Assembly: GCA_905182715.1 (NCBI GenBank)
Contig: CAJJCP010000020.1
Span: 319-64,318, forward strand
DNA length: 64,000 bases
Source: an uncultured Candidatus Poseidoniales archaeon
GTDB taxonomy: Archaea; Thermoplasmatota; Poseidoniia; Poseidoniales; Poseidoniaceae
Direction: 5' to 3'
In this document: piece by piece, positions 1-20,512 of the stretch
How positions within the stretch are numbered: the stretch's first letter is position 1
How the letters are laid out: each line of letters opens with the position of its first letter
The notes under the pieces: model-generated
Databases searched by the model: none
What the model saw: only the letters and a program-made list of their open reading frames with translations
What the model was told of the DNA's origin: nothing
Made by a program: the position numbers and the translations under genes

Positions 1-519
1 TCGAACTCTTTCTCTGACGAGCGTGAAACTGCGCCCAATCATTTCTTTTGCTATTGAATTTGATACATTCTCTTGATTGTTATCATGTAATACCATTTTT
101 GTTCCATCCCTTGGCAAAAGCCCTTCTCGATCAACAACTTGCATGATAGTTTCTCCCGGTTTAGGGATGAGTTTATGCAATTCTTGATCAAGAGTACGGA
201 CGGTGAGATGTGCAATCATAGGTATCTCATCAAGATCGATTCCTTCGTCCCAATCGTCATCAAATTCAATACCTGCTCCACCAGCTACTTTCGCAACCCC
301 GACGTAAATCGTTGAATCACGATGGCCGGCAGCGTTACTATCTGAGATCACTGAACCCGTCGCATCATAGATGTCGAACTGACCTTTCGGTGCGAGTTTT
401 AGATCTTGAACCGCTTGCTTCAGAATGGCATTTTGAGGTACTTCGACCCGTTGTTTCTGGGATTGATCGAGGGTATTGGCTACAGTCAGTGGTATCATTT
501 TGTTTTGCATATTTTTCAT
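1..519 (-). CDS. Ubiquitin-like (beta-grasp-like) candidate with internal Gly-Gly; 3' end leaves the window
   Basis: Minus-strand open frame absent from the ORF track because it runs off the left edge. ATG at 519 (in-frame ATG at 510) follows a GGAG. The first 81 aa (MKNMQNKMIPLTV..DSTIYVGVAKVAGG) have Ub/ThiS/SAMP-like length and end in GG (nt 277-282). An acidic linker (AGIEFDDDWDEGIDLDE) and a further domain follow. Confidence 0.4.
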   Translation of the reverse strand, partial: MKNMQNKMIPLTVANTLDQSQKQRVEVPQNAILKQAVQDLKLAPKGQFDIYDATGSVISDSNAAGHRDSTIYVGVAKVAGGAGIEFDDDWDEGIDLDEIPMIAHLTVRTLDQELHKLIPKPGETIMQVVDREGLLPRDGTKMVLHDNNQENVSNSIAKEMIGRSFTLVRERVR

Positions 520-596
520 CTCCGTTTTGTCTTCAAACTATACTTTTGTCAAGGTGTCTTATTTCTGTTAAATTTGGTAAGGGTTCAATATAATAC

Positions 597-728: not shown

Positions 729-815
729 ATCTTTTCATCTCCGTTTTGTCTTCAAACTATACTTTTGTCAAGGTGTCTTATTTCTGTTAAATTTGGTAAG
801 GGTTCAATATAATAC

Positions 816-947: not shown

Positions 948-1022
948 ATCTTTTCATCTCCGTTTTGTCTTCAAACTATACTTTTGTCAAGGTGTCTTAT
1001 TTCTGTTAAATTTGGTAAGGGT

Positions 1023-1445
1023 TCAATATAATTCAGAGTCGATGCTTTCTCCTGTTTGTGAACAAAACAGTTTGTATGAATCTGATTGTCTATCACGGTG
1101 TGCAAAAATCAGCTTTCCATATTTTTGATGCTGATGAACGAGAATTCGAGTTCTCCAAGAAATGTATAATGCTTGTACTAAAATTGTCAATCCAGTAAGG
1201 TACACAATGCAATACGTAATTGGTTTCAGTGATTGAAACACTTTATCCGCCACAGAGATATGATTCTCGAGGTTCATCACCTCGTCGACGGTATGCGGAA
1301 AAATACTCTGTGAAACAACTTCTGAAGTAAATTCAGATTTAATTTCATGTCGATGTGCAGTTAAAGTAAATTCTATGATTTTTATTCCCTCTTTGCACTC
1401 AACTTGAATTGGGTTAGGGATTACTCGATTATCATAAATCATCAA
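1023..1445 (-). CDS. Hypothetical protein with one predicted TM helix
   Basis: 140-aa ORF co-oriented with the cassette. Hydrophobic stretch ITYCIVYLTGLTILVQALYISW. Its start overlaps the end of the 60-aa ORF. Confidence 0.35.
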   Translation of the reverse strand: MMIYDNRVIPNPIQVECKEGIKIIEFTLTAHRHEIKSEFTSEVVSQSIFPHTVDEVMNLENHISVADKVFQSLKPITYCIVYLTGLTILVQALYISWRTRILVHQHQKYGKLIFAHRDRQSDSYKLFCSQTGESIDSELY

Positions 1446-1720: not shown

Positions 1721-2473
1721 TTACTTCCAAAGTTGCTCAAGAACCTCAAACGGAACAAAAAACCAAAAAACCAAAATAACTCCTGCGGTGAAAAAGAGGT
1801 ATACGGATAGAAATTCTAGTAAAGTCGCGATCAATTTAAATAAAAGCGCCATTGCTAAAAATAGAATGCATATACCGATTATTGGAAAAACAGTAACATA
1901 AATTATCCAAACTACACCCTCAGTTATCGACGACGAATAATGCAGCTGCTCCAACAACCATCCGCAAAAAAAGATTAATCCGGTGAAGAGATAGGATGCA
2001 AGAACTAAGGGGCCGTCCGACCAGTCATACAACCAGTCCTCCAAAAAACAAACAACCAGATGAAAGACTATCAACGTACCACCATAGATCACTATATCCA
2101 TTGTAAGGGAAGGGCCAAGAATGTAGTTTACTCCCAAAAAGAGTAAATAGATTACTCCCAAAAAGAGTACAATGGACTTACATCGCCATAAAAAAGAAAT
2201 GATGCTTTTTCTTATTGTTATGGGCAATAGAATATCGTTTCTTGAAACTGATTGGCGGTTATAATCTCTCAAATGGATTTGAGCACGTTTATGGTGCTCA
2301 CAAGACCAATGATCATGGTTAGATGAAAAACAGATACTACATCTTTTCCTTTTTTCCACTTGAATGTGAGGTTTATCTTTCACTTGAATGTGAGGTTTGA
2401 CAGGAAAGGACTGAAGTGGTCCACTTCCTTGATAGTCATTAACAAGATCTAAAATATTTATTCCTTCGTCCAT
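1721..2473 (-). CDS. CCHC zinc-knuckle protein fused to a polytopic membrane domain
   Basis: CSICFSSNHDHWSC fits CX2CX4HX4C exactly (aa 45-58, nt 2300-2341). It is followed by about 5-6 hydrophobic helices. Two internal 24-bp tandem duplications are present (KPHIQVKD/KPHIQVEK and LLFLGVIY/LLFLGVNY). Confidence 0.6.
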   Translation of the reverse strand: MDEGINILDLVNDYQGSGPLQSFPVKPHIQVKDKPHIQVEKRKRCSICFSSNHDHWSCEHHKRAQIHLRDYNRQSVSRNDILLPITIRKSIISFLWRCKSIVLFLGVIYLLFLGVNYILGPSLTMDIVIYGGTLIVFHLVVCFLEDWLYDWSDGPLVLASYLFTGLIFFCGWLLEQLHYSSSITEGVVWIIYVTVFPIIGICILFLAMALLFKLIATLLEFLSVYLFFTAGVILVFWFFVPFEVLEQLWK

Positions 2474-2546: not shown

Positions 2547-2735
2547 CTAAGCAGGTGGATGGGAATATGAAAGAAGGTAATGTCCACATTCACACTGGGG
2601 CAAGGAAACTCCAGTGAACACAAAACGTGCACGATAAGCACTGACGTCCACGGGAACTTTCCGGCCGCATCTGCAAATTATTATGGAAATCCATTTTCCT
2701 TGAGATTCGACTTCATCATCAATCCAGAGCCTCAT
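2547..2735 (-). CDS. Small Zn-ribbon-like protein
   Basis: 62 aa with CRCG..(24 aa)..CECG. Its ATG overlaps the stop of the upstream E1-like gene in an ATGA (2732-2735), suggesting translational coupling. Confidence 0.5.
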   Translation of the reverse strand: MRLWIDDEVESQGKWISIIICRCGRKVPVDVSAYRARFVFTGVSLPQCECGHYLLSYSHPPA

Positions 2736-4288
2736 TCAATACCCTCCGATGTGGAATCAAGTTGAACGTCCGAATCGGTGGGTTTCGGCGACCAAAGAGC
2801 TTTTTCAAGTTGTTGAACTCCGCTTTTCCGATTCAACTCTCCGTCCGAAAGATTGCAGTATACTTCATTATAGCGTGCATTCCAATTCACTGAACCAATA
2901 CTGGAATACTTCTGACCAGTCAAGCGTTGAAGGGCTGAAATAGCTTGGAGTGAGCCAACAAATGCGTTGGTAATCGCAAGTGAGGAAAGGGGGACTTCTC
3001 CATCTTCTTGACATGAATATACGACCTGATCACGTGCGACTGAAGGGCCGTAGAATTCGACAAGGTTGGTCGTTGAAAACTCTGTATACTGCGCGAATAA
3101 CCCCGTGATTCCGCCATTGACATATGGCTGGTTTTTTCGTGCAGCAATTAAATCTGCAAGAACGCGAGGACGCATAGCATCAAGGCACCCAAGTATTGCA
3201 TCTGTTTGTTCGAGTTGAGTGCGGATTTCATCATCCTTCAACACTTTATACTGTCGAAGGATGATATCTTCAGAGTCTGAAAGTAAATCGTCAAGAGTGA
3301 ATCCTTCGCTACTACTGGTTTCGAGCGAGGGCTGCGGAGGTTGGAGAAGGCCGTCATGAAGTTCATAAGCGATAGAAATTTTGGCATCTGGAAGGTTTCG
3401 ATTCAACCAGTCTTTAGCGGCTTCAATTTTCGGCCTTCCAATATCTGATTCAGAAAAAATAACTTGTCGATTGAGATTATGACGTTCAACTTCCATGTCT
3501 TTATCAAAAACAAGAAGTTGTATGTCGTTAAAATCCGAATTTTTTAATCCATTGACAATGGAATGAAGTGCCCACGTACCGAGACCTCCCGCACCAACGA
3601 CGGTTAGATGGCCTGAGGGGGGGGTTTTTGGTTCTGGGAGCGTAAATCGCATGATTGGAAATTTGGGATGTATATTTTCATCTCCCCCAGATACCTGAAG
3701 TTTCTTGAGAAGTTCTTGCACCAAAGGAGTTTCATCATCCAAACGCATCAATACTCGCTTATGCCCGGTTCCATCGTTTACTGGACGGATGTTAATGTGA
3801 GAATCGATTCCTTCAAGTTGAAAGTCAAGATGATTGATACTACCTTTCATCGAAGGTTCGTTCACACGAACATTCACTGAAACCGATACCTTTGGTACAT
3901 CTACTGGAGTGTAACAATTTGCTCGACGGAAAATTTCGCTCCATATCAAGCACGCAGAAATAGTTGCCAGCGAAGGTTCAAACATCGGATGTGCAGATTT
4001 CTGACAAGGTGTTCCATCGAGAAATACGCCTTCTTGGCCATAGGATACAAAAAGCTTGGAAGCATCATTTTTAAATCCACCAGCAAGTGGTTTCTTGACC
4101 CAGGCAATTGTAAAATCAGGATCTGCAGAGGAGTATGGGAACGATTGAATTCCGAGTTGTTGAGCAATTTGTATCATTGCATCCTTAAACAGTGAAGGAC
4201 TTGAATCGGCATCCTCGAACGTTACTTTAAGAGATTCTAAAATATCCTGATGAACAAGACCTCGTTGACGGCTAAATATATCGCTCAT
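2732..4288 (-). CDS. E1-like (ThiF/MoeB/Uba-type) adenylating enzyme, paralog 2; degenerate N-terminal ThiF-like half plus active C-terminal half
   Basis: C-terminal half has VVGAGGLGTW (nucleotide loop), FDKDMEVERHNLNRQ, GRPKIEAA, CLDAMRPRV and a candidate Cys in YSCQEDG. The N-terminus starts with the ThiF-like FSRQRGLV but has no G-loop. The ATG at 4288 forms an ATGA overlap with the upstream AAA gene stop. Confidence 0.8.
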   Translation of the reverse strand: MSDIFSRQRGLVHQDILESLKVTFEDADSSPSLFKDAMIQIAQQLGIQSFPYSSADPDFTIAWVKKPLAGGFKNDASKLFVSYGQEGVFLDGTPCQKSAHPMFEPSLATISACLIWSEIFRRANCYTPVDVPKVSVSVNVRVNEPSMKGSINHLDFQLEGIDSHINIRPVNDGTGHKRVLMRLDDETPLVQELLKKLQVSGGDENIHPKFPIMRFTLPEPKTPPSGHLTVVGAGGLGTWALHSIVNGLKNSDFNDIQLLVFDKDMEVERHNLNRQVIFSESDIGRPKIEAAKDWLNRNLPDAKISIAYELHDGLLQPPQPSLETSSSEGFTLDDLLSDSEDIILRQYKVLKDDEIRTQLEQTDAILGCLDAMRPRVLADLIAARKNQPYVNGGITGLFAQYTEFSTTNLVEFYGPSVARDQVVYSCQEDGEVPLSSLAITNAFVGSLQAISALQRLTGQKYSSIGSVNWNARYNEVYCNLSDGELNRKSGVQQLEKALWSPKPTDSDVQLDSTSEGIE

Positions 4289-5412
4289 AGTATCACCCAA
4301 TCGTCTTCATCATCCTGTTCTTCGGACCATTCTTCGAGTTTTTCTTCATTTACATGAACGGGTGCAACGGTCCGAAAAAGATGCCTTGACGCTTGGAGGC
4401 CGTGTTCCAAGTCTTCAGTTTTCAAACACACTTCTGTTTTTTCTTCAATGCATCGTCGAGCTGAACAGTGTTTGATTTGGTCAACGAACCCTTTCAATTC
4501 GGCTCCAGTGACCTTATCCCTAAGTCGGTTTGAAGCAGCAATCCATTCTTGATTGGATATCGTCGATGGAATAGTACCGATTTGCATCTGAAAAAATTCA
4601 TAGAAGAGATCATTTGTAAGGGCACCAACCTCAATGCTCTGATTAAAACGCCCTGGACGAAGAAAAGCATCGTCAATTAATTCGGCTTTATTGGTTGAGG
4701 CCATGAGGTAGATGCCATCGGAAGGCTTCAATCCATCCATCATTGTCAAGAGTTGGGCAACGACAGAACTTGAGTGTTGACTTCCCTCTGAACTATCGCG
4801 GTTTCGCCCTATTGCATCGAATTCGTCAAAAAAGAGAACGACTGGTGCAAGTTCTTCCGCCCGCTGAAACATTTCACGAACAGCGCGTTCACTTTCTCCG
4901 ACCCACTTTGACAAGAAATCTGGGCCCGATACTGCCATAAATTGTACATTGGCTAAACTTGCAGCAGCCCTTCCCAACATGGTTTTCCCTGTCCCAGGTG
5001 GGCCGTGAAGTAGAACTCCACCTGAACAAGAAAGGCCCAATGAATCATAGATTTCGGGATTGTTAATTGGATGTACAAGATGATCGATTAACTCCTTTTT
5101 GGCATCTTGGTGGCCAATAACAGAATCCATTTCGATTCGCCCCATTGTTGCAGGACGTCGTGCTTGTGACGCCCATGGAGTAAATTTGAGAAATGCTTCT
5201 TCAAAATCTTCGGTACAAATACGCAAATCTTCAAGTTCATCTTCAGTGTCCTTACCGGGCTCTTTGGCTTGGCCGCCAAGATCGGCGAAGTCCTTCGCCA
5301 CTCGCATGTCGGCACAAATTCGCAATATCTGCTCCCGTGCATCCAACGGTTTTCTTCGACCAATCAGAAAGAGAAACTTCTTCCAATGGCATGTTTTTTG
5401 AATGGATTTCAA
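4285..5412 (-). CDS. Cdc48/VCP-like AAA+ ATPase, D1 lid/linker plus D2 fragment
   Basis: D2 Walker A LLHGPPGTGKTML and Walker B VLFFDEFDAIG. From residue 36 (MRVAKDF..DLRICTEDFEEAF..) it reads as the D1-D2 linker that continues ORF 5252-6481 in another frame. Confidence 0.75.
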   Translation of the reverse strand: MKSIQKTCHWKKFLFLIGRRKPLDAREQILRICADMRVAKDFADLGGQAKEPGKDTEDELEDLRICTEDFEEAFLKFTPWASQARRPATMGRIEMDSVIGHQDAKKELIDHLVHPINNPEIYDSLGLSCSGGVLLHGPPGTGKTMLGRAAASLANVQFMAVSGPDFLSKWVGESERAVREMFQRAEELAPVVLFFDEFDAIGRNRDSSEGSQHSSSVVAQLLTMMDGLKPSDGIYLMASTNKAELIDDAFLRPGRFNQSIEVGALTNDLFYEFFQMQIGTIPSTISNQEWIAASNRLRDKVTGAELKGFVDQIKHCSARRCIEEKTEVCLKTEDLEHGLQASRHLFRTVAPVHVNEEKLEEWSEEQDDEDDWVIL

Positions 5413-6481
5413 GAATACGCTCTCGGCCTTTTACATCTGGATACGGTACGTGAATGCGCCGGTCAAAACGTCCGGCACGAAGCAGTGCAGGATCAATTGT
5501 TTCGAGTAAATTTGTTGAACCAACAACGAGAACTTGGCCTCGATCTTCAAATCCATCCATTTGAATGAGGAGTTCCGTGAGTATTCGCTTTTCCAACTCC
5601 CCACTGCTGTTTTTCCGATCACCCGCAATGGCATCGATTTCGTCGATATAGATGACCGATGGGGCTTGTCGCTTTGCCTCCGCAAATTTTTCACGGAGTG
5701 CTGATTCGGAAGCGCCGTAATGAGCGCTTACAATTTCTGGTCCGCTGATACAAATGAAATTGCATTGTGCCTCACGTGCAAGAGCGCGTGCAAGGAGAGT
5801 TTTTCCAACTCCTGGAGGCCCATAAAGGAGAATTCCTCGCGGTGGTTCTTGACCTGATTTGACATAAATTTCAGGATGGATCAGAGGTACAACTGCAATT
5901 TCCTTAATCGCTTCAATCGTCTCATCAAGACCACCAATATCGTCAAAAGATACGGCGGGAACCTCAATAATTGAACGACGTGACTTTTTCCCAAGGATTT
6001 CAATTTCCGTGTTTGGAGTGAGCCAGCCGTGTTGAGGGCGGCATCGAGTTACTTGAAGTTCGAGTGGTTCTCCGAGTACAGAGACGGTGAAATGGTCATC
6101 TTTTGAAAGATAGATGTCGCGGATGGCTGCTTGAACATGTGGGATCTCCTCTGGCTGAAGTGGACGAGCAGTTGGTTGGAGCCGTACTTTGACAAAGGCT
6201 TGGGCATCAATTTGAGCAAGTTCTACCTTTTCTCCTAGTTGAATTTGAACATTGATTCGGGTAGTGGAACCGATACCGATAGAATCGTATGGGATATTGG
6301 GATCGAGTCTTAGGAATGCCACTGTCGAATTCTTCTCGCCAATAATTCGAAGAGGGGAGCGGCTTTGGAAACCGTTCTCATCAGCTGCTTGTGTATTCAT
6401 ATACACGTCATTTCCAACGCCACCTCGGTGGGTCTCATGGTCAAGTGGGGCAATACAGGTAAATTCAGTCATCGTAATCAT
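5252..6481 (-). CDS. Cdc48/VCP-like AAA+ ATPase, N-domain plus D1 fragment
   Basis: N-terminal Cdc48-N-like region (STTRINVQIQLGEKVEL..VSFDDIGGLDE). D1 Walker A LLYGPPGVGKTLLA and Walker B VIYIDEIDAI. The frame ends just after GADIANLCRHA, where D1 should continue. Confidence 0.8.
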   Translation of the reverse strand: MITMTEFTCIAPLDHETHRGGVGNDVYMNTQAADENGFQSRSPLRIIGEKNSTVAFLRLDPNIPYDSIGIGSTTRINVQIQLGEKVELAQIDAQAFVKVRLQPTARPLQPEEIPHVQAAIRDIYLSKDDHFTVSVLGEPLELQVTRCRPQHGWLTPNTEIEILGKKSRRSIIEVPAVSFDDIGGLDETIEAIKEIAVVPLIHPEIYVKSGQEPPRGILLYGPPGVGKTLLARALAREAQCNFICISGPEIVSAHYGASESALREKFAEAKRQAPSVIYIDEIDAIAGDRKNSSGELEKRILTELLIQMDGFEDRGQVLVVGSTNLLETIDPALLRAGRFDRRIHVPYPDVKGRERILEIHSKNMPLEEVSLSDWSKKTVGCTGADIANLCRHASGEGLRRSWRPSQRAR

Positions 6482-6517: not shown

Positions 6518-8065
6518 TTAAATATGATATTTACAAGGTTCATCAAACCATGGGGGCTGAGTCGGTGAAGACTTCTCCAGTTCTCCTTCATACCATGTGG
6601 CTCGGAAATTTGGAAGATTCGTATCTGGGTGGAGGTTGATAATCGCCATGAGAGCCATCATCGCTCCAACCCAAGCTGTTGAAGTGACGATTGAAGCGAT
6701 GGGGCGAATTCCTTCTTCGGTACAAGAAATCACTTCGGTAGAACGTGCGCTTTCCCTCCCATAACGACAAACCATGCAACCGTTTTGATCGAAAGTTTCA
6801 ACCACGCCATGATACGCTTCAGTGGCTCCATTAATCATGAGACTACCGTTGTTAATCGCCGCTTCATTCAATATTGTTCGAGCGATCATATTGTCAAGGC
6901 ATGCAAGATAGACTCGACTGCTTTTCAATGCATCACCTAACGGTGAAGGCTCAAGGCCTAAGTCGTCAAAATCATCATTTTCATCTGTAAGACTTTCCGA
7001 AATTAAATGGTGCGGGTTCAGATATTCAAAATAAGACTTTACTTGATTCAGCGGGTTCAATTCTCGGAGTCGTTCGGAGGCTGTTGAAGCTTTTACACAA
7101 CCGAGGTGTTGTTCATTGTAGAGCACTTGCCGGTTCAGATTGTGAAGTTCAATTTCGGGGTCCCCGTCTACAATATGGAACGTTCCTTCCTTCATCTGTT
7201 CGAAAAGAAGCGGTGCACTCCAACTACCGAGCCCACCTGCGCCTAAAATCACAAGTTCATGCCCGACAAGTTCCCACGAGGAATCGAGGGGATGGTTTGG
7301 TTCATGCCATGCAATAAGTCCGATGTCTTCTGAAACTGAGAGGCCTGTTTGAGAAGGTTGCATGGTTCGTGAAAGAAAGTCAAAAACATTCTGATCCGGC
7401 TGTTGGGATGGGCGGTATCGAGCAAGGGTCGCATTTCCGTCACTGGTTAATTGTACGTCAACAAGTGTCCCATCGATGCCAAAGATGTGGCTCCGAACCT
7501 CTTCCAAATCCGTTGATTCCACTCGGCAGGTGACTGTAAACCAGGCATCGCTGATTTTCATTTGAGCCATACAATCTACATCGCGAAGCAGTTGTTGCAG
7601 CATTGTAGCAGCAACAGTAACCCGCATTGAAGGGGTGAGAATGTGCCCTGATGATACCGTTTTTTGAACAAGGAATTCTCGAGAAATCATTGCCCGGGGA
7701 CCATGAGCGAAACCATAGAGGTTTACTTTTTCAGTTTGTTCTGATGGATTTAAGCAGAGGTGATAATCATAATTGTCCCCTTCTACTTCAGTTGTTGATG
7801 AAAACACCTTCCGATGTATTGGACTCAATCGCTCCCAATCACTCCACAACTTTGCATCTGGATAAGCAAGTTTCCAAAACACAGAGTTCGGTGGATGCTG
7901 CGGCTTTACGATTCCAATACATCCGGATTGTTGGCCAATGCCCAATTGAGAAAGGAGAACAACAAGGTCGCTGACACCTCCGGAGCTCCCTGAAACAAGA
8001 ATTTTCAGTTCGGAGAGCCGGTTCTGATTGACGAGGCCTCGTTGTCGAAGAAATATATCATTCAT
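6518..8065 (-). CDS. E1-like (ThiF/MoeB/Uba-type) adenylating enzyme, paralog 1; degenerate N-terminal ThiF-like half plus active C-terminal half
   Basis: ILGAGGLGSW, VDGDPEIELHNLNRQ, GCVKASTA, CLDNMIART, CMVCRYG and SCTEEG. N-terminal half: FLRQRGLVNQ..ILVSGSSGGV (degenerate G-loop). Likely ATG at 8065 (MNDIF); the ORF track starts at a GTG at 8074. Confidence 0.8.
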   Translation of the reverse strand: MNDIFLRQRGLVNQNRLSELKILVSGSSGGVSDLVVLLSQLGIGQQSGCIGIVKPQHPPNSVFWKLAYPDAKLWSDWERLSPIHRKVFSSTTEVEGDNYDYHLCLNPSEQTEKVNLYGFAHGPRAMISREFLVQKTVSSGHILTPSMRVTVAATMLQQLLRDVDCMAQMKISDAWFTVTCRVESTDLEEVRSHIFGIDGTLVDVQLTSDGNATLARYRPSQQPDQNVFDFLSRTMQPSQTGLSVSEDIGLIAWHEPNHPLDSSWELVGHELVILGAGGLGSWSAPLLFEQMKEGTFHIVDGDPEIELHNLNRQVLYNEQHLGCVKASTASERLRELNPLNQVKSYFEYLNPHHLISESLTDENDDFDDLGLEPSPLGDALKSSRVYLACLDNMIARTILNEAAINNGSLMINGATEAYHGVVETFDQNGCMVCRYGRESARSTEVISCTEEGIRPIASIVTSTAWVGAMMALMAIINLHPDTNLPNFRATWYEGELEKSSPTQPPWFDEPCKYHI

Positions 8066-8076
8066 CACAATCACCG

Positions 8077-8608
8077 TTAACGAGCTTCATCCAATGGATT
8101 CGGATTCTTCAACACATCTTCGACATGATGCAATAGAAAACCTAACTTTTCTTTCTCTGTTCGACAGCCGATAAAACTCTCGCTGAAACCAGCCCTGTAC
8201 AAAGGCACAAATCTCCATTTCAGGCAAGATACTGTATCTCCCTTTTCGAAAGATATTTTCATGCTCAATATTTTCACACTTGGGCGATAGCACAAACACC
8301 TGTGGAGTTTCTGCAAAGGAACGGGAATCAATGAGAAGCTGGTAGTTCACTACGCTTTGATCACGACTCGAAACAACACCTTGAAGGTTTACAACAAAAG
8401 CGCCAATTGTATTTTTTGTACTGTGTTTACTGCTAAAGTTCAGCGAAGGGTACATCGTCATTTTGAAACGGTTAAACACTGCTTTGGACAAACTTGAACC
8501 CGAGCACACTCGAAGAGGCACTTTGTATTCACCTGGCTTGCAGTCATTAATTTGTTCAACTCCAGCCGACATGCGGAGGAAGTCCCCATTGTCCATCATA
8601 AATCCCAT
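8077..8608 (-). pseudogene. E2/UBC-like protein, duplicate copy A, frame-disrupted
   Basis: The core (GEYKV..EHENIF..EMEIC) has the same amino-acid sequence as copy B. Two 1-nt deletions just after the candidate catalytic Cys move the conserved tail (GFSESF..VLKNPNPLDEAR) into ORF 8077-8331. The N-terminus is remodelled by indels. Confidence 0.55.
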
Positions 8609-9360
8609 ATTTTTTCTCGTTCATTTTGCTCACTCATCTTTTGAATCTATCAAGTCGTTCGGATTTTATTAAATTTGACATGAAGAGTGGCTTTTTGGCG
8701 TACCCTCAGCACCGATTAAGACGAGCTTCATCCAATGGATTCGGATTCTTCAACACATCTTCGACATGATGCAATAGAAAACCTAACTTTTCTTTCTCTG
8801 TTCGACAGCCGATAAAACTCTCGCTGAAACCAGGCCCTGTACTAAGGCCACAAATCTCCATTTCAGGCAAGATACTGTATCTCCCTTTTCGAAAGATATT
8901 TTCATGCTCAATATTTTCACACTTGGGCGATAGCACAAACACCTGTGGAGTTTCTGCAAAGGAACGGGAATCAATGAGAAGCTGGTAGTTCACTACGCTT
9001 TGATCACGACTCGAAACAACACCTTGAAGGTTTACAACAAAAGCGCCAATTGTATTTTTTGTACTGTGTTTACTGCTAAAGTTCAGCGAAGGGTACATCG
9101 TCATTTTGAAACGGTTAAACACTGCTTTGGACAAACTTGAACCCGAGCACACTCGAAGAGGCACTTTGTATTCACCCGGCATTCCCTGGCCGGAATTTGT
9201 TCGTCTCCAGCCGACGATGCGGAGGAGGTCCCCATTTCCATCATAAATCCCGTATGTTTCTCTCGTTGCATTTGTGCTCACTTCATCGTTTGAATCTTTC
9301 GAGTCGTAATCGGATTTTCATTAAATTTGACATGAAGGAGTGGCTTTTTGCCGTACCCTC
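8081..9360. repeat. Tandem duplication of about 630-640 bp (E2-like gene plus the 3' end of the gene upstream of it)
   Basis: 8081-8707 is homologous to 8722-9360. The central coding core encodes the same amino acids in both copies. The flanks carry substitutions and indels. Confidence 0.85.
8706..9281 (-). CDS. E2/UBC-like protein, copy B (intact)
   Basis: FAETPQVFVLSP..IEHENIF(x13)EICG..LLHHVEDVLKNPNPLDEA resembles the E2 pattern PPxVxF..HPN..C..LLxxPNPxxP. The HxN-to-Cys loop is longer than in canonical E2s (15 intervening residues). Confidence 0.6.
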   Translation of the reverse strand: MSTNATRETYGIYDGNGDLLRIVGWRRTNSGQGMPGEYKVPLRVCSGSSLSKAVFNRFKMTMYPSLNFSSKHSTKNTIGAFVVNLQGVVSSRDQSVVNYQLLIDSRSFAETPQVFVLSPKCENIEHENIFRKGRYSILPEMEICGLSTGPGFSESFIGCRTEKEKLGFLLHHVEDVLKNPNPLDEARLNRC

Positions 9361-10252
9361 GACGATAATCAAGATACGCTTCTTTGCCAGCAGGTGTTGC
9401 GAGCGAAATTGGAGCAACGACCCACCGGCCTTTTACAGTCACCGTGGAAAGGCCTGGTTGAACGATGACGAAAGTGCATCCGAATAGGCGATTCTCGGAT
9501 GCTGGATGTTGTACAGTTCAGCCGATTCTCCCGCTCTCTGGAAGTTTGCAATGAAGAGATGTTGTCCATCACGATAATGCGGGAGGTTCACCAACGCTGG
9601 TGAATTCTTCGACCTGCGTCGCGAACCCGAACTCCCATCCCATGTTGGCCCCTTCTTTGGCAGGCGATTACCCGTGCAATGAGATGCACGTTGCCACCAC
9701 TCCAGCTGGGCTGGCGTCACACTTCCTTTGAAGATACTCTGGCCGACTTTAAGCGTAGAAGGGGTTTTCAAGGCTACATTGGGCTAGTTTGTTATTTTTC
9801 GCGCTGTTGCTGCTCTGTGGCTTGCTCTGTGGCTTGCTCTGTGGCTTGCTCTGTGGCTTGAAATTTATTTGGGACTGGGCTGAGGTCTGGGCGGAAAACT
9901 GCGACTCCCCTGTTACCAGCCACAGTTTGTATCGTACTGCACAGCATCCCCAAAAACCTCGAATCAAGATCGAAGGGTCGGATGATTGGTAGGGCACCCG
10001 GATGTCATTCTTGTCCAGTCTTGGGAGTCAAAGAGAGAGACTGTCGTTACCTTCGAGAGGCGCGCGGGCGAACACAAGGTCGCCATCTCATATATGGCTT
10101 ATTGCCCGTGCGAAAGCGGTACGCGTACGAAAGAACGATTCTTGCTGTTTTCGTTGAGTGACGAATACATTCGCATATTCGCCGACTTCAATCCCGGGAA
10201 TGAGTAGTTTGGTACCCTCCGCTTAGGCGCTCAGAACCCACAAAGGGTCTCG
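9290..10252 (-). pseudogene. Degraded or ambiguous coding remnant
   Basis: No long clean ORF. One minus-strand frame is open from about 10215 to 9749 except for two in-frame TGAs (10088-10090, 10028-10030) and has no canonical start. At least one further frame change near 9490 leads into ..VTVKGRWVVAPISLATPAGKEAYLDYRRGYGKKPLLHVKFNENP.., which ends at about 9285. Confidence 0.3.
9811..9858. repeat. 12-bp perfect tandem repeat x4 (tgctctgtggct)
   Basis: Read directly from the sequence. It encodes (LLCG)n on the plus strand or (KPQS)n on the minus strand. Confidence 0.9.
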
Positions 10253-10510
10253 TTAGCCGTTTGCTTCACCCCATACCGATTCGACCTGTTTCAGCATCCC
10301 CATGCGGATCTTTATGAGGGGCAGTCTCCTATTGTTTGGTGATTCAGTGCATTTCCGTGGGCATCCATTGCATATCGCAAACTCCCATCGCGCGGGTAGA
10401 AGCCCCGATCGAGTCATGGCTTCAAGTACAGTAGAACTTTCATCCACAAGAACGCGTGTTGAAATGGTCTCGTTTGAACCGAGAATAAATTCAACTTCTC
10501 GGAGACCCAT
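10253..10510 (-). CDS. Small protein ending in Gly; beta-grasp-like N-terminus plus a Cys cluster (tentative)
   Basis: 85 aa: VEFILGSNETISTRVLVDESSTVLEAMTRSGL, then CNGCPRKC, with C-terminus ..WGEANG. It is the first gene of the minus-strand cassette. Confidence 0.35.
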   Translation of the reverse strand: MGLREVEFILGSNETISTRVLVDESSTVLEAMTRSGLLPARWEFAICNGCPRKCTESPNNRRLPLIKIRMGMLKQVESVWGEANG

Positions 10511-10616
10511 GGTTTGTGAGATTTTTTGACCGAGATATCATCTGATTTGTGCTAGATTTAATCAAATATTCCGTTGCGCGCAGTGACTAAATATCATAGT
10601 GAAGGGTGGTCTTAGC
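10511..10616. promoter_or_regulatory. Divergent intergenic region between the two accessory gene blocks
   Basis: AT-rich with TATA-like elements (tttaatcaaatatt, taaatatcat). GGTGG lies 8 nt before the ATG at 10617. Confidence 0.25.
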
Positions 10617-11918
10617 ATGCAATTATGTCTCGTAGAATTTACTCGCAAATGCACGACGGGAGTTTTTTTCACGAAGTTCATCGATGCAGTATCAAAGCAC
10701 GAGATTGAAGAAATTGTTCTTTTCCAACCTACAGACCAAGTTTGCCTTCCTCTTCGCGAAGAATTGGAAGCTAAATTCCCAAAAGCAACTCTCCGCTCTG
10801 AGCAACTTGAACCAATCTCAACTGACATGGTTATCCATGAGATGATGCAGCAACCATGGAACTTATTGCGGCAGATCCTTTCTAAACTTGACGAAGGGCA
10901 GGAGTCGCTGTTTGTTCTTGGTCGTGGCGCAAGTCTGCTTCAGCACATGATGTGGCTTAGCGCGGAAATCCGGGGATGTAAAACGATTTCAATCGACGCA
11001 CCAGATGTCGAACTCTTTCATATCGGCACTTCAGAAGTAAATACAGAGATTGCAAGCACGACCCTCGGGGCATTTGTCAGCCTTCATGCACAGGAAATTA
11101 ATGAAAACATTACGGGTAAAAACGGCTGGTTCAGTGCGAATGATATTTCTCAGTTACCTGGAGCTGTTGCTTCGGGAATAAATGCTGCAACACAACTCCC
11201 TTTGAAAAAAGGATATTTGCTCAAAGAAGAGACACAATCCGGCAATACAGTGTATAAATTAACTCCAAAGGGTTGGCACTCCTGCTCTAAAAGCTTCACA
11301 GAAGCGAGAGGGGTTGAAGATGAAGATTTGAAAGAATTATTGATTTCGTTTTCCCGTCAAATTCCAAGTATTCAGATTGGCAATGGTCAAACTGCGGAAA
11401 CCCCTCTGCTAACTTCGCAAATTTCAGGCGCAGGCATTCACGATGGATTGCTTGTCGTTCTCCAAAGAATAGACGATTCGATTGAAGGGAATCATGTGAT
11501 GACACTTGATGATGCGTGTGATTTTTTCACGGAACCGGGTCTTTTAGGAGATTTACGAGCCGCAAAGGAAATATTACGCCAAAGGTGTGAGTACGATTCT
11601 GTTGATGTGAAAAATCATCTCGTCGTCATCAATCCAGTTTACGATGAAGAGTTTCAATTGCTCTTCTCAAACAACCTTTTCGCTGCTCTTGCTGATTTTG
11701 AAAAGGAATATGGGCGACATAACTGGAATTTTGACATCACCAGTCCGCTGAATCAAATCAAAGCCACTGTGTCTTCTTTTTCAAACGCAAGTAACGCTTC
11801 AACATACTTTATCCTCAAACCGAGAGGAGAAAAAGGAGTTGTTTTTGAGAAAGTCGAACGTTCTCGGCACCCCCGCTATGCTCACAAACTCTCTGTTCCA
11901 AACTCGGAGTGCTCTTGA
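10617..11918 (+). CDS. Hypothetical regulator/sensor with Rossmann-like modules and a winged-helix motif
   Basis: LFVLGRGASLLQHMMWLSAEIRGCKTISID (CARF/Rossmann-like, tentative) and GNTVYKLTPKGW (wHTH wing). The reading appears to continue in other frames up to 12286. Confidence 0.4.
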   Translation: MQLCLVEFTRKCTTGVFFTKFIDAVSKHEIEEIVLFQPTDQVCLPLREELEAKFPKATLRSEQLEPISTDMVIHEMMQQPWNLLRQILSKLDEGQESLFVLGRGASLLQHMMWLSAEIRGCKTISIDAPDVELFHIGTSEVNTEIASTTLGAFVSLHAQEINENITGKNGWFSANDISQLPGAVASGINAATQLPLKKGYLLKEETQSGNTVYKLTPKGWHSCSKSFTEARGVEDEDLKELLISFSRQIPSIQIGNGQTAETPLLTSQISGAGIHDGLLVVLQRIDDSIEGNHVMTLDDACDFFTEPGLLGDLRAAKEILRQRCEYDSVDVKNHLVVINPVYDEEFQLLFSNNLFAALADFEKEYGRHNWNFDITSPLNQIKATVSSFSNASNASTYFILKPRGEKGVVFEKVERSRHPRYAHKLSVPNSECS

Positions 11919-12019
11919 GGTCTTGAAAAAGAAACCCGCTGATGGGTATGGCAACATTCTTGTTGCACTCATGCTCCTTGAAAATGTAAAATCTAAGAAA
12001 GAATTGAAGAATCTTCCGT

Positions 12020-12286
12020 TTGATGATGTCGAAGAAGATGATTTGGATGGTGTCGAATGGACTGAGGTCGTTACTTTTGTGCAAGGATCTGAAATGCCCA
12101 TATGACCTCAGCAAAGGTATTATTTCCGGCAGCCAAACTCGGATGAAAGAGCTCATTCAATCAAAACTTGTACGCCGTCATGTCTCTGATGAAGGCTCAT
12201 CGAAAATGCGTTTCGCCCTCACCAATGAAGGCTACCTTGTTGCAAGTCAGTTGTATGACGTTCTTAAGCAGGAGGGGATGGCATGA
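12020..12286 (+). CDS. Winged-helix DNA-binding segment, possibly the C-terminus of the 10617 gene after frame breaks
   Basis: SGSQTRMKELIQSKLVRRHV..MRFALTNEGYLVA is wHTH-like. The ATGA overlap at 12283 couples it to the next gene. Confidence 0.4.
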   Translation: MMMSKKMIWMVSNGLRSLLLCKDLKCPYDLSKGIISGSQTRMKELIQSKLVRRHVSDEGSSKMRFALTNEGYLVASQLYDVLKQEGMA

Positions 12287-12609
12287 CTGAGTTTACTGTT
12301 GACGATTTGCGTAAATTTCACGAACGCGAGGGCGAGGATGCAAATCTCGTCTGCCCCCATTGTGGCCCCGTTTTTACTCTAGTCGATGGAGAGGCAGAAC
12401 TACGTTTGAGGGGTTTTATTAAACATCAGTCATCTCAATCAGACGAAATGTACCTTCTCGCAAAATTTGGAATATGTGTTGGATACCATACTGGCATAGA
12501 GAATATTTCGCCCTATGGAGTTCCAGTCATTCGAGAGGATGACTATTCCCCTAAGCTCGAACGCGCCCCACTCACCCCCGAAGAACTTGCTATTTTCGAT
12601 GAAAAATAG
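12283..12609 (+). CDS. Hypothetical protein
   Basis: 108-aa ORF, start coupled to the preceding gene (ATGA). One CPHCG motif only. Confidence 0.45.
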   Translation: MTEFTVDDLRKFHEREGEDANLVCPHCGPVFTLVDGEAELRLRGFIKHQSSQSDEMYLLAKFGICVGYHTGIENISPYGVPVIREDDYSPKLERAPLTPEELAIFDEK

Positions 12610-12680
12610 ACGCTCCTGCGCGAGTCACACAACCAAGCCCTGAGAAGAAAAATCTTGTCAAAACGAGTGCAACTGCTGCT

Positions 12681-13466
12681 TTGGGAGATTATTTGTATGA
12701 ATTGGATCCACCCTATGTTTTTGAACAATTCATGTCGACTTGGCAGGAAGAAGATGATAACGAAAATCTCGAAAAACTGAATGCACCCAATGAATGGTTT
12801 GATTGTCTATGGCCGTTCATTAAGGATACGTTGGACGTCAAGAAAGAGGCCACAATTAAAGAAAACCTACTCATCACAATTTACCTTCACAAAACTACTG
12901 AAATGAGGCACATAGAGCCACTATGGCTGTTCTGGAAACGGTTTGGAATGGGGAAAAGAGCTCTTGAAAGGGCTATAGCCTCATTCCCCGCTGGATTACC
13001 GAGCCACTTTCAAGACCTTTTCACGAAAATTGAACGTGATTATGAACCTGACCGCTCAACCATCGAATCACTCGTCAATACCCTCGTACTGGATAAAATA
13101 TGCCCGCCAATGAATGGCTCAGAAATGCAAGGGTTCATTCAAAATGCGACGGATTTCCTTGGGAAAATGAAAAGAGCACCTTACGGGAATTTGAGTTGTT
13201 ATGAATTTTTAATTTCGGAGCCCCTTATCGCTGATTCAATGGCAATTGGCGGTCAGACTCTGCCTCATGCAGGAATTATCGAACTCGTTTGCATCTATGC
13301 AACCATGAGACAAAAAACCAGTTCCGCGGATGAGTTTCTAAGAACGGTATTCCCGAGTGAGGCGGGGCCGTTGTGGGAAAATGTACTTTCAAAACATGGG
13401 AAAAAAATCGGAATCGCCAAAACCATCAATTCCCTAATAACTCATATCGAAAAGAACGCGCAATGA
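12681..13466 (+). CDS. Hypothetical protein
   Basis: 261-aa ORF within the co-oriented island. No motif recognised. Confidence 0.5.
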   Translation: MGDYLYELDPPYVFEQFMSTWQEEDDNENLEKLNAPNEWFDCLWPFIKDTLDVKKEATIKENLLITIYLHKTTEMRHIEPLWLFWKRFGMGKRALERAIASFPAGLPSHFQDLFTKIERDYEPDRSTIESLVNTLVLDKICPPMNGSEMQGFIQNATDFLGKMKRAPYGNLSCYEFLISEPLIADSMAIGGQTLPHAGIIELVCIYATMRQKTSSADEFLRTVFPSEAGPLWENVLSKHGKKIGIAKTINSLITHIEKNAQ

Positions 13467-14836
13467 ATAATACAAATGGAAGTGAGATTGTGGACGAGGG
13501 GATTGTTGAAAATACTCGAAAATACATATTCGACCCTAGAAACAATTTACCCCCTCATGAAATTGAAAACTTGACCCCTTACATGCAAAAGCAAAAAACC
13601 ATAGAAACACTGGAAGAAAAAGGTCACTTTCGAGAGATTGAAGGTGAGATAGGTCCACTGCAAAATATTATCCGATCACCGCCTCATGGTTTATCCAGCA
13701 AAACTAAATTGTGTAGGAGATTATATCTTTTTCTAGATGTGAATTTCAGTATAGCAAAGGGAGATGAGCCAATAAAATCATATGAAAGTTCGTTTAAGGA
13801 CCTCGTTCAAGACAGAATCCAACGGGCCTCATGGAATACAGATGAATCAGATTACGATATCGAGTTGCGAACTCTAAGCGAAGACGCTGATGTCAGCAGT
13901 GAACAATGGAGATCGATCACAATGAGATTAGCCGATCTAACCCCCGGTTCACGATTGTTCGTGTTTGACAATAAAGAAGAGATAAACGATGTTAATGATG
14001 TTGAGGATTTACTTTTATCAAATCATATAAAACTTAGAGAACTCAATGATAAAATTGGAGTGAAGCATGGACCTCTCGAAATGCTGGGCCTCTTCTCAAA
14101 TTCGTTACAACAGGCCTTTAGCAATCCTGAAATGTTTAGAGAGTTTAAGGAAAAAGTAGAAGGAAAAACCGAAGTTATAATCCTCCCCACTTCTTTGAAA
14201 CCAATGAATACAAAACTCCATTTTGAGCGTGCTGGCATTATTGAAGCATTAGTTGCCTCCCACAAAATCGGCGGCGAATATGTCGAATGGATTGATTCAT
14301 GTCTCGAAAAGGTGTTCAAACGAATCAACTCGCATGAAAAACCATTCACTAAGAAGCATGTGGCCATATCCACGAGTACCTTTGTCTCGAAAATTTTTTC
14401 ATCGCCTAGCCGAGAAAAAAAACCTGTAAACCTGGATTCTGAACCGCTAGGTAAAAATAGAATTCAGTGCAGTATTTCAAAAATTAATTCAGTCATCATG
14501 GCTGAAGGTCATGAGAGATTAAATTATTCATGCTGCTCAGATATTCAAAAAGCAATTACGGAGCTGGTTCACCGATCTATGACTTACATTAACACATTGT
14601 TTGAAAAAGAAAGTCAATTCCGCGCAATTATCTTTGCATCTGTAATTAACATGAACGAGGAGATTCGTGGTAGTCTCCATAAAGGCCCAGAAAATGAATT
14701 AACATCTGAAAGCAAAAATACAACAGTCGAAAGTCGAATTAAACAAATGTGGAGCAATTTATCCTCGCTGGATTCAAAGAACATTTGTGGAATACAAACC
14801 ATGACTGCCAAACGTGGACAAGTGGCAAACCCGTGA
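13463..14836 (+). CDS. Hypothetical protein
   Basis: Likely start MNNTNGS at 13463, forming an ATGA overlap with the upstream stop. The ORF track extends to 13373. Confidence 0.5.
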   Translation: MNNTNGSEIVDEGIVENTRKYIFDPRNNLPPHEIENLTPYMQKQKTIETLEEKGHFREIEGEIGPLQNIIRSPPHGLSSKTKLCRRLYLFLDVNFSIAKGDEPIKSYESSFKDLVQDRIQRASWNTDESDYDIELRTLSEDADVSSEQWRSITMRLADLTPGSRLFVFDNKEEINDVNDVEDLLLSNHIKLRELNDKIGVKHGPLEMLGLFSNSLQQAFSNPEMFREFKEKVEGKTEVIILPTSLKPMNTKLHFERAGIIEALVASHKIGGEYVEWIDSCLEKVFKRINSHEKPFTKKHVAISTSTFVSKIFSSPSREKKPVNLDSEPLGKNRIQCSISKINSVIMAEGHERLNYSCCSDIQKAITELVHRSMTYINTLFEKESQFRAIIFASVINMNEEIRGSLHKGPENELTSESKNTTVESRIKQMWSNLSSLDSKNICGIQTMTAKRGQVANP

Positions 14837-15356
14837 GGGAGCAATACTGAACGGGTGGAAGGAGACCTGCAAGTCTTGGGAGTTTAAGGCAAGGAGTAAA
14901 AGTTCGAGGCAAATTAAACAAATTCTTGGAATGATTCTCGAAGATGATGCAGATATCGAACAAATCATAAAGGATTGGAAAGGTTTTCTTGAACAGTTCA
15001 AGAAGAGTGAAGTGAGGGAAAAGAAATACGGATATGGAGCGCTCAGTGAAGTGCCCAAATACGGTTTGTTTTTACTTTCCCAAGGCGTATGTGAACCTCT
15101 TCGTGAGTTATTTGCTGAAACCAAAAAGGTGACGCATGGCGATTTATTTTTATTGAATAAAATTCCCGGAATGGATCTTAATTTTAGACGACTTTACATT
15201 GATATCAAAGATAAGAGGTATATACCTGCAAGTAAGGCTTACGAGATTATAAAGAAGTTAAATGACGCGCTAATCGATTGTAATTGGGAAAATGACGAAT
15301 CGGAAGAAATTTCTATTGACCCAAGTACAGAACCTCTCGAATGGTGGAGTGATTAA
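14814..15356 (+). CDS. Hypothetical protein
   Basis: 180-aa ORF. It overlaps the upstream gene by 23 nt. Confidence 0.45.
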   Translation: MDKWQTREGAILNGWKETCKSWEFKARSKSSRQIKQILGMILEDDADIEQIIKDWKGFLEQFKKSEVREKKYGYGALSEVPKYGLFLLSQGVCEPLRELFAETKKVTHGDLFLLNKIPGMDLNFRRLYIDIKDKRYIPASKAYEIIKKLNDALIDCNWENDESEEISIDPSTEPLEWWSD

Positions 15357-15357
15357 T

Positions 15358-19131: not shown

Positions 19132-19143
19132 CAGCATTCACCA

Positions 19144-20493: not shown

Positions 20494-20512
20494 AAATATA
20501 TTCACAAAAGAG

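Follow-up and report, generated by a model that had tools for sequence, protein, structure and literature searches.

The window analyzed here is a stretch of 64,000 nt from an uncultured Candidatus Poseidoniales archaeon (NCBI GenBank assembly GCA_905182715.1, contig CAJJCP010000020.1, positions 319 to 64,318). At its left edge lies the 5′ part of a minus-strand gene whose product begins with a ubiquitin-like (Ubl) module ending in Gly-Gly (GG). Two genes for E1-like proteins, a gene for a Cdc48-like ATPase, and two copies of a gene for a putative E2-like protein follow upstream on the same strand. Considered together with related loci (L001, L002, and so on) and related proteins (P0012, P0107, and so on), the edge gene and this cluster may represent a protein-modification system in which the modifier is made as a fusion precursor.

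The edge gene and its ubiquitin-like modules

Minus-strand translation of positions 1-519 gave 173 codons without a stop, from an ATG at 517-519 to the left window edge. This open reading frame (ORF) was absent from the ORF list because the list skips ORFs that run off the end of the source. An earlier note made from the DNA letters alone (the sequence-only reading) had stated that the ORF track missed it, and rightly so; residues 1-81 were exactly the sequence quoted there, and the ubiquitin-sized N-terminal module with a GG end, the acidic linker, and the further protein that it had described were all present in the translation. In a collection of 5.8 billion proteins, 47 matched the edge ORF (best E 1.6e-71), and metagenome contigs encoded products with 97% amino acid identity to it across all 173 residues. 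By sequence comparison, the edge ORF is a real coding sequence and no chance ORF. The Met that was invariant among homologs was M4 (ATG 508-510), located 9 nt downstream of a GGAG; because of this conservation and the upstream GGAG, M4 is probably the start codon, rather than the ATG at 517-519. Gly80-Gly81 were followed by AGIEFDDDWDEGIDLDE, and both the length and the sequence of the linker differed among homologs.

The diglycine of the gene product's first module was conserved. The module (MIPLTVANTL...YVGVAKVAGG, approximately 78 residues) contained 28 invariant columns, including both glycines, in an alignment of 27 homologs (alignment A1), all of which had GG. Among all loci fetched, which held 91 Ubl1 copies (66 distinct protein sequences), GG was aligned in 90 copies, with CGGG as the lone exception, so that every one of the 91 contained a GG. 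The module thus appears to carry the conserved C-terminal diglycine of ubiquitin-like modifiers, and the loss of GG in homologs that could have spoken against the sequence-only reading was not found. An exhaustive HMMER search with the Ubl1 profile found only 67 proteins at E ≤ 0.001 among 1.84 billion representative proteins, which indicates a small family. The organism names on close relatives were all Poseidoniales, Poseidoniaceae, Poseidonia, or older Marine Group II labels. Directly after the GG we observed an acidic linker and a second Ubl in 45 copies and a class B or class C E2-like domain in 43 copies; a JAB domain followed the GG immediately in P0059 and P0063, and distant relatives had a stop codon or a short tail at this point.

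In the AlphaFold2 model, residues 8-76 formed a beta-grasp with the order b-b-a-b-h-b (predicted local distance difference test, pLDDT, 73-87), and residues 105-169 formed a second domain of identical topology (pLDDT 85-93), whereas residues 77-101 (AKVAGG plus the acidic linker) were predicted to be disordered (pLDDT <50). The structure alignment was built so that only true full-length relatives covered the C-terminal part. The best Foldseek matches to this model in the PDB were linear di-ubiquitin (top), polyubiquitin, ISG15, and other tandem di-Ubl structures, with E from 5e-8. Ubl1 alone, taken from a second model (P0012), superposed on ubiquitin, NEDD8, Bacteroides BfUbb, and Caldiarchaeum ubiquitin at approximately 3 Å root-mean-square deviation, with a target-normalized template modeling score of approximately 0.6. 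In these models, both domains have a ubiquitin-like beta-grasp fold, and that of Ubl1 is closer to ubiquitin than to ThiS/MoaD. The Ubl1 profile also matched Ubl2 as a second stretch, and a bacterial Ubl (P0107) matched Ubl2 with E 2e-4. The beta-grasp that the sequence-only reading depended on was therefore predicted, and so was the second one that it had considered possible after residue 97.

No such likeness was found at the sequence level. The edge ORF had no Pfam family at E ≤ 0.01, with the thresholds of PF00240 (ubiquitin) and PF02597 not reached; the Ubl1 profile had no match among PDB sequences (best E 0.53, to an unrelated protein); and no NCBIfam model matched Ubl1. Assignment of Ubl1 to a named Ubl family was dropped after these three empty searches, and similarity of Ubl1 to ubiquitin was undetectable by Pfam and by the PDB profile search. 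The sequence-only reading, which had seen in the module the length and the GG-end pattern of ThiS/MoaD/SAMP/Ub proteins, is supported by the predicted fold and by the conserved diglycine.

Two related metagenome contigs, L025 and L047, matched the window to its last codon (97% amino acid identity, 95-97% nucleotide identity) and continued as ...RERVR|AGAGGIPRERMNELKVEYPS...HWICHG...INHIQNLLNA-stop, which makes the whole product 317 residues long. The complete gene is thus probably a 317-aa fusion of the form Ubl1-linker-Ubl2-(AGAGG)-E2-like class B, with approximately 144 codons beyond the window edge. The sequence-only reading had offered a Ubl fusion and a multi-Ubl protein as alternatives; both hold, and the partner is probably the E2-like domain seen in relatives. 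A different identity, that of a JAB fusion (Ubl1-Ubl2-JAB-coiled coil, approximately 555 aa), was suggested by the first full-length relative found, a 554-aa protein that is 75% identical to the window fragment and is encoded on the syntenic contig L005 (a single-cell genome contig, Ca. Poseidoniales AG-333-I22), and by a frameshifted gene in L002. Residues 1-100 of the window product are also identical to the JAB fusion of L026. The second domain separated the two identities. Window Ubl2 was 99% identical to Ubl2 of L025 and L047, which continue into class B, but only 53% identical to Ubl2 of the L026 JAB fusion (gapped). At the DNA level (gapped alignments), Ubl1 plus linker was 99.3% identical to the L026 paralog and 94% identical to L025, whereas Ubl2 was 60% identical to the L026 paralog and 97% identical to L025. 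These comparisons make the window gene orthologous to the 317-aa class B fusion and the JAB fusion a paralog with the same 5′ cassette. In addition, L005 has a class B fusion at the position of the window gene (after a 151-aa gene and a small ORF) and the JAB fusion next, an order that L047 and L026 share. The 554-aa layout was rejected for the window gene on the class B continuation of L025 and L047, and we regard a JAB fusion here as very unlikely.

Homology between the class B and class C domains extended along their entire length (hhalign, 99.1%, E 1e-18, 128 columns), and a Cys-x-Gly motif was conserved in at least 90% of the class B and class C sequences. Compared with canonical UBC E2 cores (five E2 sequences), class C gave hhalign probabilities of 89.5% and 93.9% over 51-61 columns, with H-x-N-I placed over HPNI, the conserved Cys over the catalytic Cys, and NPNPDD over PNPDDP. 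The AlphaFold2 model of a Ubl1-class C protein (P0012) showed a helix, four strands, a Cys loop, and two helices (pLDDT 85). Searches with the class B and class C profiles returned only noise from the PDB and no Pfam match. Class C is a probable E2-like domain, and class B would be E2-like transitively, through its homology to class C.

The gene cluster, its paralogs, and the leader cassette

Beyond the edge gene, the same strand carried, in upstream order, two ORFs of 43 aa, one of 140 aa, one of 250 aa (Cys-rich/transmembrane), one of 62 aa (Cys-rich), E1-like b, the Cdc48-like double-AAA ATPase, E1-like a, and two tandem class C genes (Table 1). The best PDB matches of E1-like b were MoeB, UBA3, SAE2, and Uba1, and its position was kept in L001-L006; those of E1-like a were PaaA, ThiF, Uba4, SAE2, and UBA5. 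The best NCBIfam matches of the E1-like proteins were ThiF, MoeB, and UbaA, all below threshold. Inactive adenylation domains were considered for the N-terminal halves of the E1-like proteins and found no Pfam support.

Table 1 Features of the edge gene and of the upstream cluster (window positions; aa, amino acids)
Feature	Position	Strand	Basis
Partial coding sequence, first 173 codons of the Ubl1-linker-Ubl2-E2-like fusion	1..519	-	Translation, homologs, L025 and L047
Ubl2, second predicted beta-grasp domain, aa 102-173, truncated approximately 8 residues before its own ...RAGAGG	1..216	-	AlphaFold2, Foldseek, L025
Acidic, predicted-disordered linker, aa 82-101, AGIEFDDDWDEGIDLDEIPM	217..276	-	Translation, AlphaFold2
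Gly80-Gly81 codons, proposed processing and activation site	277..282	-	Conservation; predicted disorder
Ubl1, predicted ubiquitin-like beta-grasp module, aa 4-81, end ...YVGVAKVAGG	277..510	-	AlphaFold2, Foldseek, alignment A1
Leader cassette copy 1, before the edge gene (GGAG plus first two codons)	513..594	-	Exact repeat
Leader cassette copy 2, before 43-aa ORF 597-728	732..813	-	Exact repeat
Leader cassette copy 3, before 43-aa ORF 816-947	951..1032	-	Exact repeat
E1-like protein b, 522 aa; ThiF domain aa 231-466 after an N-terminal extension of approximately 230 aa	2732..4300	-	PF00899, E 8e-24
Cdc48-like double-AAA ATPase with Cdc48 N-domain, split by a frame change	4285..6481	-	80% identity to L005 homolog, in two frames
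E1-like protein a, 518 aa; ThiF domain aa 273-480	6518..8074	-	PF00899, E 8e-33
Frameshifted second copy of the class C E2-like gene (tandem duplication)	8074..8614	-	Sequence comparison
Class C E2-like protein, 191 aa, intact copy	8706..9281	-	Alignments A4 and A6

The Cdc48-like gene was present in the window as two overlapping ORFs, with a frame change at approximately 5260-5276, inside a variable linker, that was no simple homopolymer slip; relatives had a single intact gene of 718-729 aa (729 aa in L005), and the split may reflect either a true pseudogene or an assembly error. The ATPase scored 496 bits against TIGR01243, below the model cut-off. The intact class C copy had a degenerate N-terminal remnant (…YGIYDGNGDLL…RVCSGS) at the position that Ubl1…VAGG occupies in relatives. 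The core order Ubl fusions, E1, Cdc48, E1, Ubl-JAB recurred in L001-L006; it was cleanly laid out in L006, where the class B, class C, and JAB fusions all begin with the same Ubl1. By its known occurrences, the cluster is so far mainly one of Poseidoniales (Marine Group II).

The JAB paralog lies outside the window. The 554-aa protein of L005 consisted of Ubl1, an acidic linker, Ubl2 (...RIPGGG), a JAB/MPN+ domain, and a coiled coil of approximately 200 residues. The domain matched PF01398 at 29.6 bits (cut-off 22.5), its JAMM motif E...HxH...S..D (LEMGG; GWIHTHPxxxIFLSGxD) was invariant in seven sequences, and its best PDB matches were Rpn11, CSN5, AMSH, and the Caldiarchaeum Rpn11 homolog. 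Its assignment to the JAB/MPN+ (JAMM) family thus appears firm. Past the edge, the order in L047 and L026 was Ubl1-Ubl2-class B, a leader with a 43-aa ORF, two small Cys-rich ORFs, and a leader with Ubl1-Ubl2-JAB; the order in L005 was identical, but its class B fusion had no Ubl2. Each of the two Cys-rich ORFs (approximately 67 and 91 aa; L026 253-453 and 737-1009, L047 1030-1230 and 1514-1786) had a leader, and neither had a family match. Judging from these contigs, the two ORFs would lie just left of the window in the window genome.

The leader itself is an exact repeat. Three mismatch-free copies of 82 nt occurred in the window with a period of 219, each ending in ...AACGGAGATGAAAA before a gene start, and its last approximately 65 nt preceded small genes in related contigs as well, with up to six copies (L055). 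The leader probably comprises a promoter and a 5′ untranslated region. The identity extended into the genes: leader, Ubl1, and linker were identical at 357 of 360 nt between the window and the L026 paralog. In L006, three Ubl1 copies did not differ at any of 234 nt (100% identity), and the 90 nt before them were 99-100% identical, with no similarity among the three past the GG codons. Ubl1 copies were 99.1% identical within L003 and within L005, whereas identity between genomes was 57-85%. The leader looks like a shared promoter/leader cassette that is kept uniform by recombination. Many contigs of Poseidoniales metagenome-assembled genomes (MAGs) start or stop inside Ubl1 (L007, L008, L013, L014, L018, L020-L024); short-read assemblies evidently break at this locus because the Ubl cassette is an exact multicopy repeat. 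The two tandem 43-aa ORFs (597-728 and 816-947) were 88% identical to each other; 81-98% identical copies were found in L025, L026, and L047 and 52-57% identical copies in L046, and this small-protein family had no Pfam match.

Distant relatives of Ubl1 also occur as free-standing proteins, which end at GG or at GG plus 5-10 aa. P0106 (73 aa) ended in ...TVEGG-stop, and the adjacent, E1-like gene starts with an RQ.GLVNQ motif, as the E1-like proteins of the window do. P0107 (85 aa, ...IEGG plus 10 residues) headed a bacterial operon in a MAG of 70% GC (L069 8001-14901; NCBI GCA_035507815.1, contig DATJNT010000013.1), whose host is probably an actinomycetote (Actinomycetota), judged by the neighboring genes. 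This operon encoded an E1-like protein (607 aa), two E2-like proteins of approximately 140 aa, a membrane JAB protein, a second JAB protein, and a double-AAA ATPase, and each of its proteins matched a counterpart in the archaeal cluster. Because the bacterial operon has the same parts unfused, the archaeal cluster reads as the fused version of a wider operon type with an independent Ubl and a near-terminal GG. Literature searches found no paper describing the P0107 operon type.

Several further ORFs lie within or next to the cluster. The 250-aa ORF (1721-2473, minus strand) was rich in Cys and His at the N-terminus and hydrophobic throughout its C-terminal half and contained 24-nt direct repeats (2124-2169 and 2354-2398); L005 has a 221-aa Cys-rich/transmembrane analog. 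The 62-aa ORF (2547-2735, minus strand), located between E1-like b and the small genes, had the pattern CxC…CxC. A RING or zinc-finger role for the Cys-rich ORFs was considered and had no Pfam support. A homolog of a 301-aa protein of L005 was spread over three frames at 9340-10303 (minus strand), and an 85-aa ORF just upstream of it (10253-10510, minus strand) contained '…SGLLPARW…', which resembles the GLxPRDG motif of Ubl2; this ORF may be another decayed Ubl2-like domain.

Proposed precursor processing and competing explanations

Enzymes of the ThiF/E1 family adenylate a free C-terminal carboxylate, so an internal GG would need to be cleaved before activation. We propose that the Ubl fusions are pro-proteins. 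The JAB paralog would cleave Ubl1, and perhaps also Ubl2, at the peptide bond that follows its diglycine, which would yield free Ubl and enzyme domain in equal amounts. An E1-like enzyme would then adenylate the exposed Gly-Gly carboxylate, and the Ubl would pass to the Cys of the E2-like domains and be conjugated to target proteins. The Cdc48-like ATPase of the cluster would recognize and unfold the conjugates, with the JAB enzyme recycling the Ubl. The cluster keeps both E1-like genes and an Rpn11-type protease alongside a GG that is invariant and lies in a predicted-disordered segment, and this precursor reading is the most economical one. Proteolytic maturation at the internal GG is plausible, given the neighboring JAB paralog, the two adjacent E1-like genes, and the free-standing relatives that end near GG. 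All steps are ones that we infer; taken as a whole, with the edge ORF as the N-terminal 173 residues of a fusion of approximately 317 residues in a Poseidoniales (Marine Group II) archaeon and with its precursors cleaved, activated, conjugated, and handled by the Cdc48-like ATPase, we consider the explanation moderately probable.

Its main rival is that the Ubls are permanent, uncleaved adaptors that dock the E2-like and JAB enzymes on the Cdc48-like ATPase or the E1s, with GG as a structural relic; the Ubl-domain proteins USP14/Ubp6, Rad23, and parkin are cited as models of this kind. In the archaeal loci, an enzyme domain always lies C-terminal to Ubl1, and free-standing Ubl1 genes are essentially absent; the cluster also always has a Cdc48-like ATPase with the N-domain that is a typical Ubl/UBX receptor. 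Both points fit an adaptor. That some Ubl2 domains end in AG or DAG and not in GG also fits an adaptor and at the same time weighs against the precursor reading. A mere relic is nevertheless difficult to reconcile with a GG kept in 90 of 91 copies despite free variation of the linker behind it, with two E1-like enzymes and a deubiquitinase-type JAB protease conserved in the cluster, or with the distant homologs in equivalent operons, which stand alone and terminate at GG or shortly past it. We therefore regard uncleaved adaptors as rather unlikely.

A sulfur carrier of the ThiS/MoaD/SAMP type, activated by the E1-like enzymes and acting in cofactor synthesis or tRNA thiolation and not in protein tagging, would share with Ubl1 the diglycine terminus and the adjacent ThiF-family enzymes, whose best NCBIfam matches are named above. 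The cluster, however, has no rhodanese, MoaE, ThiG, or cysteine desulfurase partner, and the lack of any partner for sulfur transfer speaks against such a role; it has E2-like, Rpn11-type JAB, and Cdc48-like genes instead, the best Foldseek matches were ubiquitin-family modifiers, and PF02597 was not matched. This explanation is highly improbable.

The state of the window cluster bears on whether the precursor reading applies to this particular genome. Within approximately 6 kb upstream of the edge gene, three genes had disrupted frames (the Cdc48-like gene, the homolog of the 301-aa protein, and one class C copy), and in the intact class C copy Ser replaced the Cys that 25 of 26 relatives align with the E2 catalytic Cys. 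These defects weigh against the proposed mechanism and point either to decay of the cluster in this population or to indel errors in the assembly, so that the edge ORF may stand outside a working system. Yet no disruption affects the edge ORF, either E1-like gene, or the leader cassettes; the edge ORF shares 97% identity with undamaged genes of other samples, with mostly conservative changes, and relatives hold intact versions of all genes. That the edge ORF belongs to such a remnant, or to an error-prone assembly, and has dropped out of a working system is unlikely.

Other observations also count against the precursor reading. The C-terminal part of the edge gene product is taken from relatives with 95-97% identity, as the window ends before the E2-like domain. 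Neither class B nor classes B and C combined gave a direct profile match to E2s, the HPN motif is absent from class B, and no E2 was among the Foldseek matches listed for the Ubl1-class C model, in which ubiquitin matches dominate. The break in identity after the GG or the linker is expected wherever nonhomologous partners begin and is no proof of a functional boundary. Finally, Ubl1 copies have diverged to 65-77% identity in L001 and L002; a single identical mature product is therefore not universal.

Relation to known systems and flanking genes

Known prokaryotic relatives of ubiquitination comprise sulfur carriers, sampylation, the Caldiarchaeum/Asgard operons, and the bacterial CBASS, Bil, and Bub defense systems. 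None described in the literature searched combines a modifier that occurs exclusively in N-terminal fusions to the E2-like enzymes and JAB protease of its own pathway, a repeated leader and Ubl cassette that stays identical among paralogs, two E1-like enzymes, and a dedicated Cdc48-like unfoldase, and full-text literature searches found no description of the Poseidoniales cluster.

One close parallel is with the ubiquitin precursors of eukaryotes (polyubiquitin; UBA52/RPS27A). There, too, the GG-ended module occurs only as the N-terminal part of fusions, and several genes hold near-identical copies of the module that evolve in concert. In eukaryotes, a deubiquitinase must free the ubiquitin module before activation by E1; by analogy, release before E1 activation would be expected in the archaeal system. 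The archaeal partners differ in being the pathway's own E2-like and JAB enzymes and not ribosomal proteins, and the sequences are unrelated. ISG15 and FAT10 also have two tandem beta-grasp domains, but their conjugatable GG is only on the C-terminal domain, whereas in the archaeal fusion the first domain carries GG and more protein follows. USP14/Ubp6, like the JAB paralog, has a Ubl N-terminal to a deubiquitinase-type domain, but the Ubl of USP14 has no GG and stays uncleaved. The Bil system (BilABCD) consists of a free-standing Ubl, an E2, a JAB, and a single E1 of IAD-AAD-CYS architecture; the Poseidoniales cluster appears to have the same four activities, but with a fused Ubl, two E1-like genes, and an added Cdc48-like ATPase.

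Among archaeal systems, the Caldiarchaeum subterraneum/Asgard-type operon comprises ubiquitin, E1, E2, a small RING E3, and an Rpn11-like protein, and its Rpn11-type JAB trims the C-terminal extension of pro-ubiquitin (PMC3082918, PMC5654768). Both clusters combine a ubiquitin-fold modifier with an E1-like protein, an E2-like protein, and an Rpn11-type JAB. The modifier of the Caldiarchaeum/Asgard operon is, however, a free-standing and recognizable ubiquitin, accompanied by one E1, a RING E3, and no Cdc48, whereas the Poseidoniales cluster has a sequence-orphan modifier fused to enzymes, two E1-like genes, and a dedicated Cdc48-like ATPase; Pfam detected no RING in it. In Haloferax, the SAMP/UbaA/HvJAMM1 system has an E1-like activator and a JAMM protease able to cleave linear Ubl fusions (PMC2948915, PMC4895103). 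Sampylation resembles the Poseidoniales cluster in having an archaeal diglycine Ubl and a functional link to Cdc48 and proteasomes. It is, however, independent of E2, and SAMPs belong to the ThiS/MoaD families and double as sulfur carriers, whereas in the Poseidoniales cluster E2-like domains are integral and the fold best matches ubiquitin.

Bacterial polyUbl ('6e') and Bub operons encode Ubls in tandem, in some cases joined to an E2-like domain of UBC fold (Iyer et al. 2006, PMC1779556; PMC11601596, PMC11601603), and share with the archaeal cluster the presence of JAB and E1-like enzymes in the same operon. In Bub, the E1 carries a fused JAB or E2, reactions proceed through Ser/Tyr oxyesters, and there is no Cdc48-like ATPase, whereas the Poseidoniales cluster has separate E1s, a conserved Cys in its E2-like domains, and a JAB fused to Ubls. 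Assignment to Bub found no support: the E1-like proteins have no JAB or E2 domain, and the E2-like domains keep Cys, in contrast to the Ser/His E2 chemistry of Bub. No PADLOC or NCBIfam model for polyUbl/Bub systems matched the window cluster, in which PADLOC returned only generic E1, JAB, and AAA domain matches and no known defense system. For Marine Group II itself, Grau-Bove et al. listed only a UCH deubiquitinase and RING domains in one single amplified genome (PMC4327156).

We hold it evenly balanced whether Marine Group II archaea (and, in unfused form, some high-GC bacteria) carry an undescribed ubiquitin-like conjugation-and-unfolding system that consists of an orphan tag, two E1-like proteins, two minimal E2-like classes, Rpn11-type JABs, and a dedicated Cdc48-like ATPase, and in which the archaeal tag arises exclusively from pro-proteins that join it to the E2s and the deubiquitinase of its own pathway, encoded with a homogenized leader and Ubl cassette. 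If it does exist, it would be an independent prokaryotic counterpart of the eukaryotic ubiquitin-fusion genes and of the ubiquitin-Cdc48 axis. If processing and conjugation occur as proposed, a eukaryote-like logic (fusion precursors, deubiquitinase maturation, E1, E2, Cdc48) would operate in one of the most abundant archaeal groups of the surface ocean, built on a sequence family invisible to annotation pipelines, and the reason why ubiquitin genes are fusions could be studied in a tractable setting. Its role could be either housekeeping proteolysis or antiviral defense, the latter as in Bil, Bub, and CBASS; the neighboring ORFs are mostly uncharacterized.

Adjoining the cluster on the plus strand (10599-21475) were large ORFs of 439, 261, 487, 449, and 356 aa with no Pfam match. 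This region could be a variable or defense-type island, although nothing known matched it, and it also encodes a 1279-aa protein with several P-loop/AAA-like segments.

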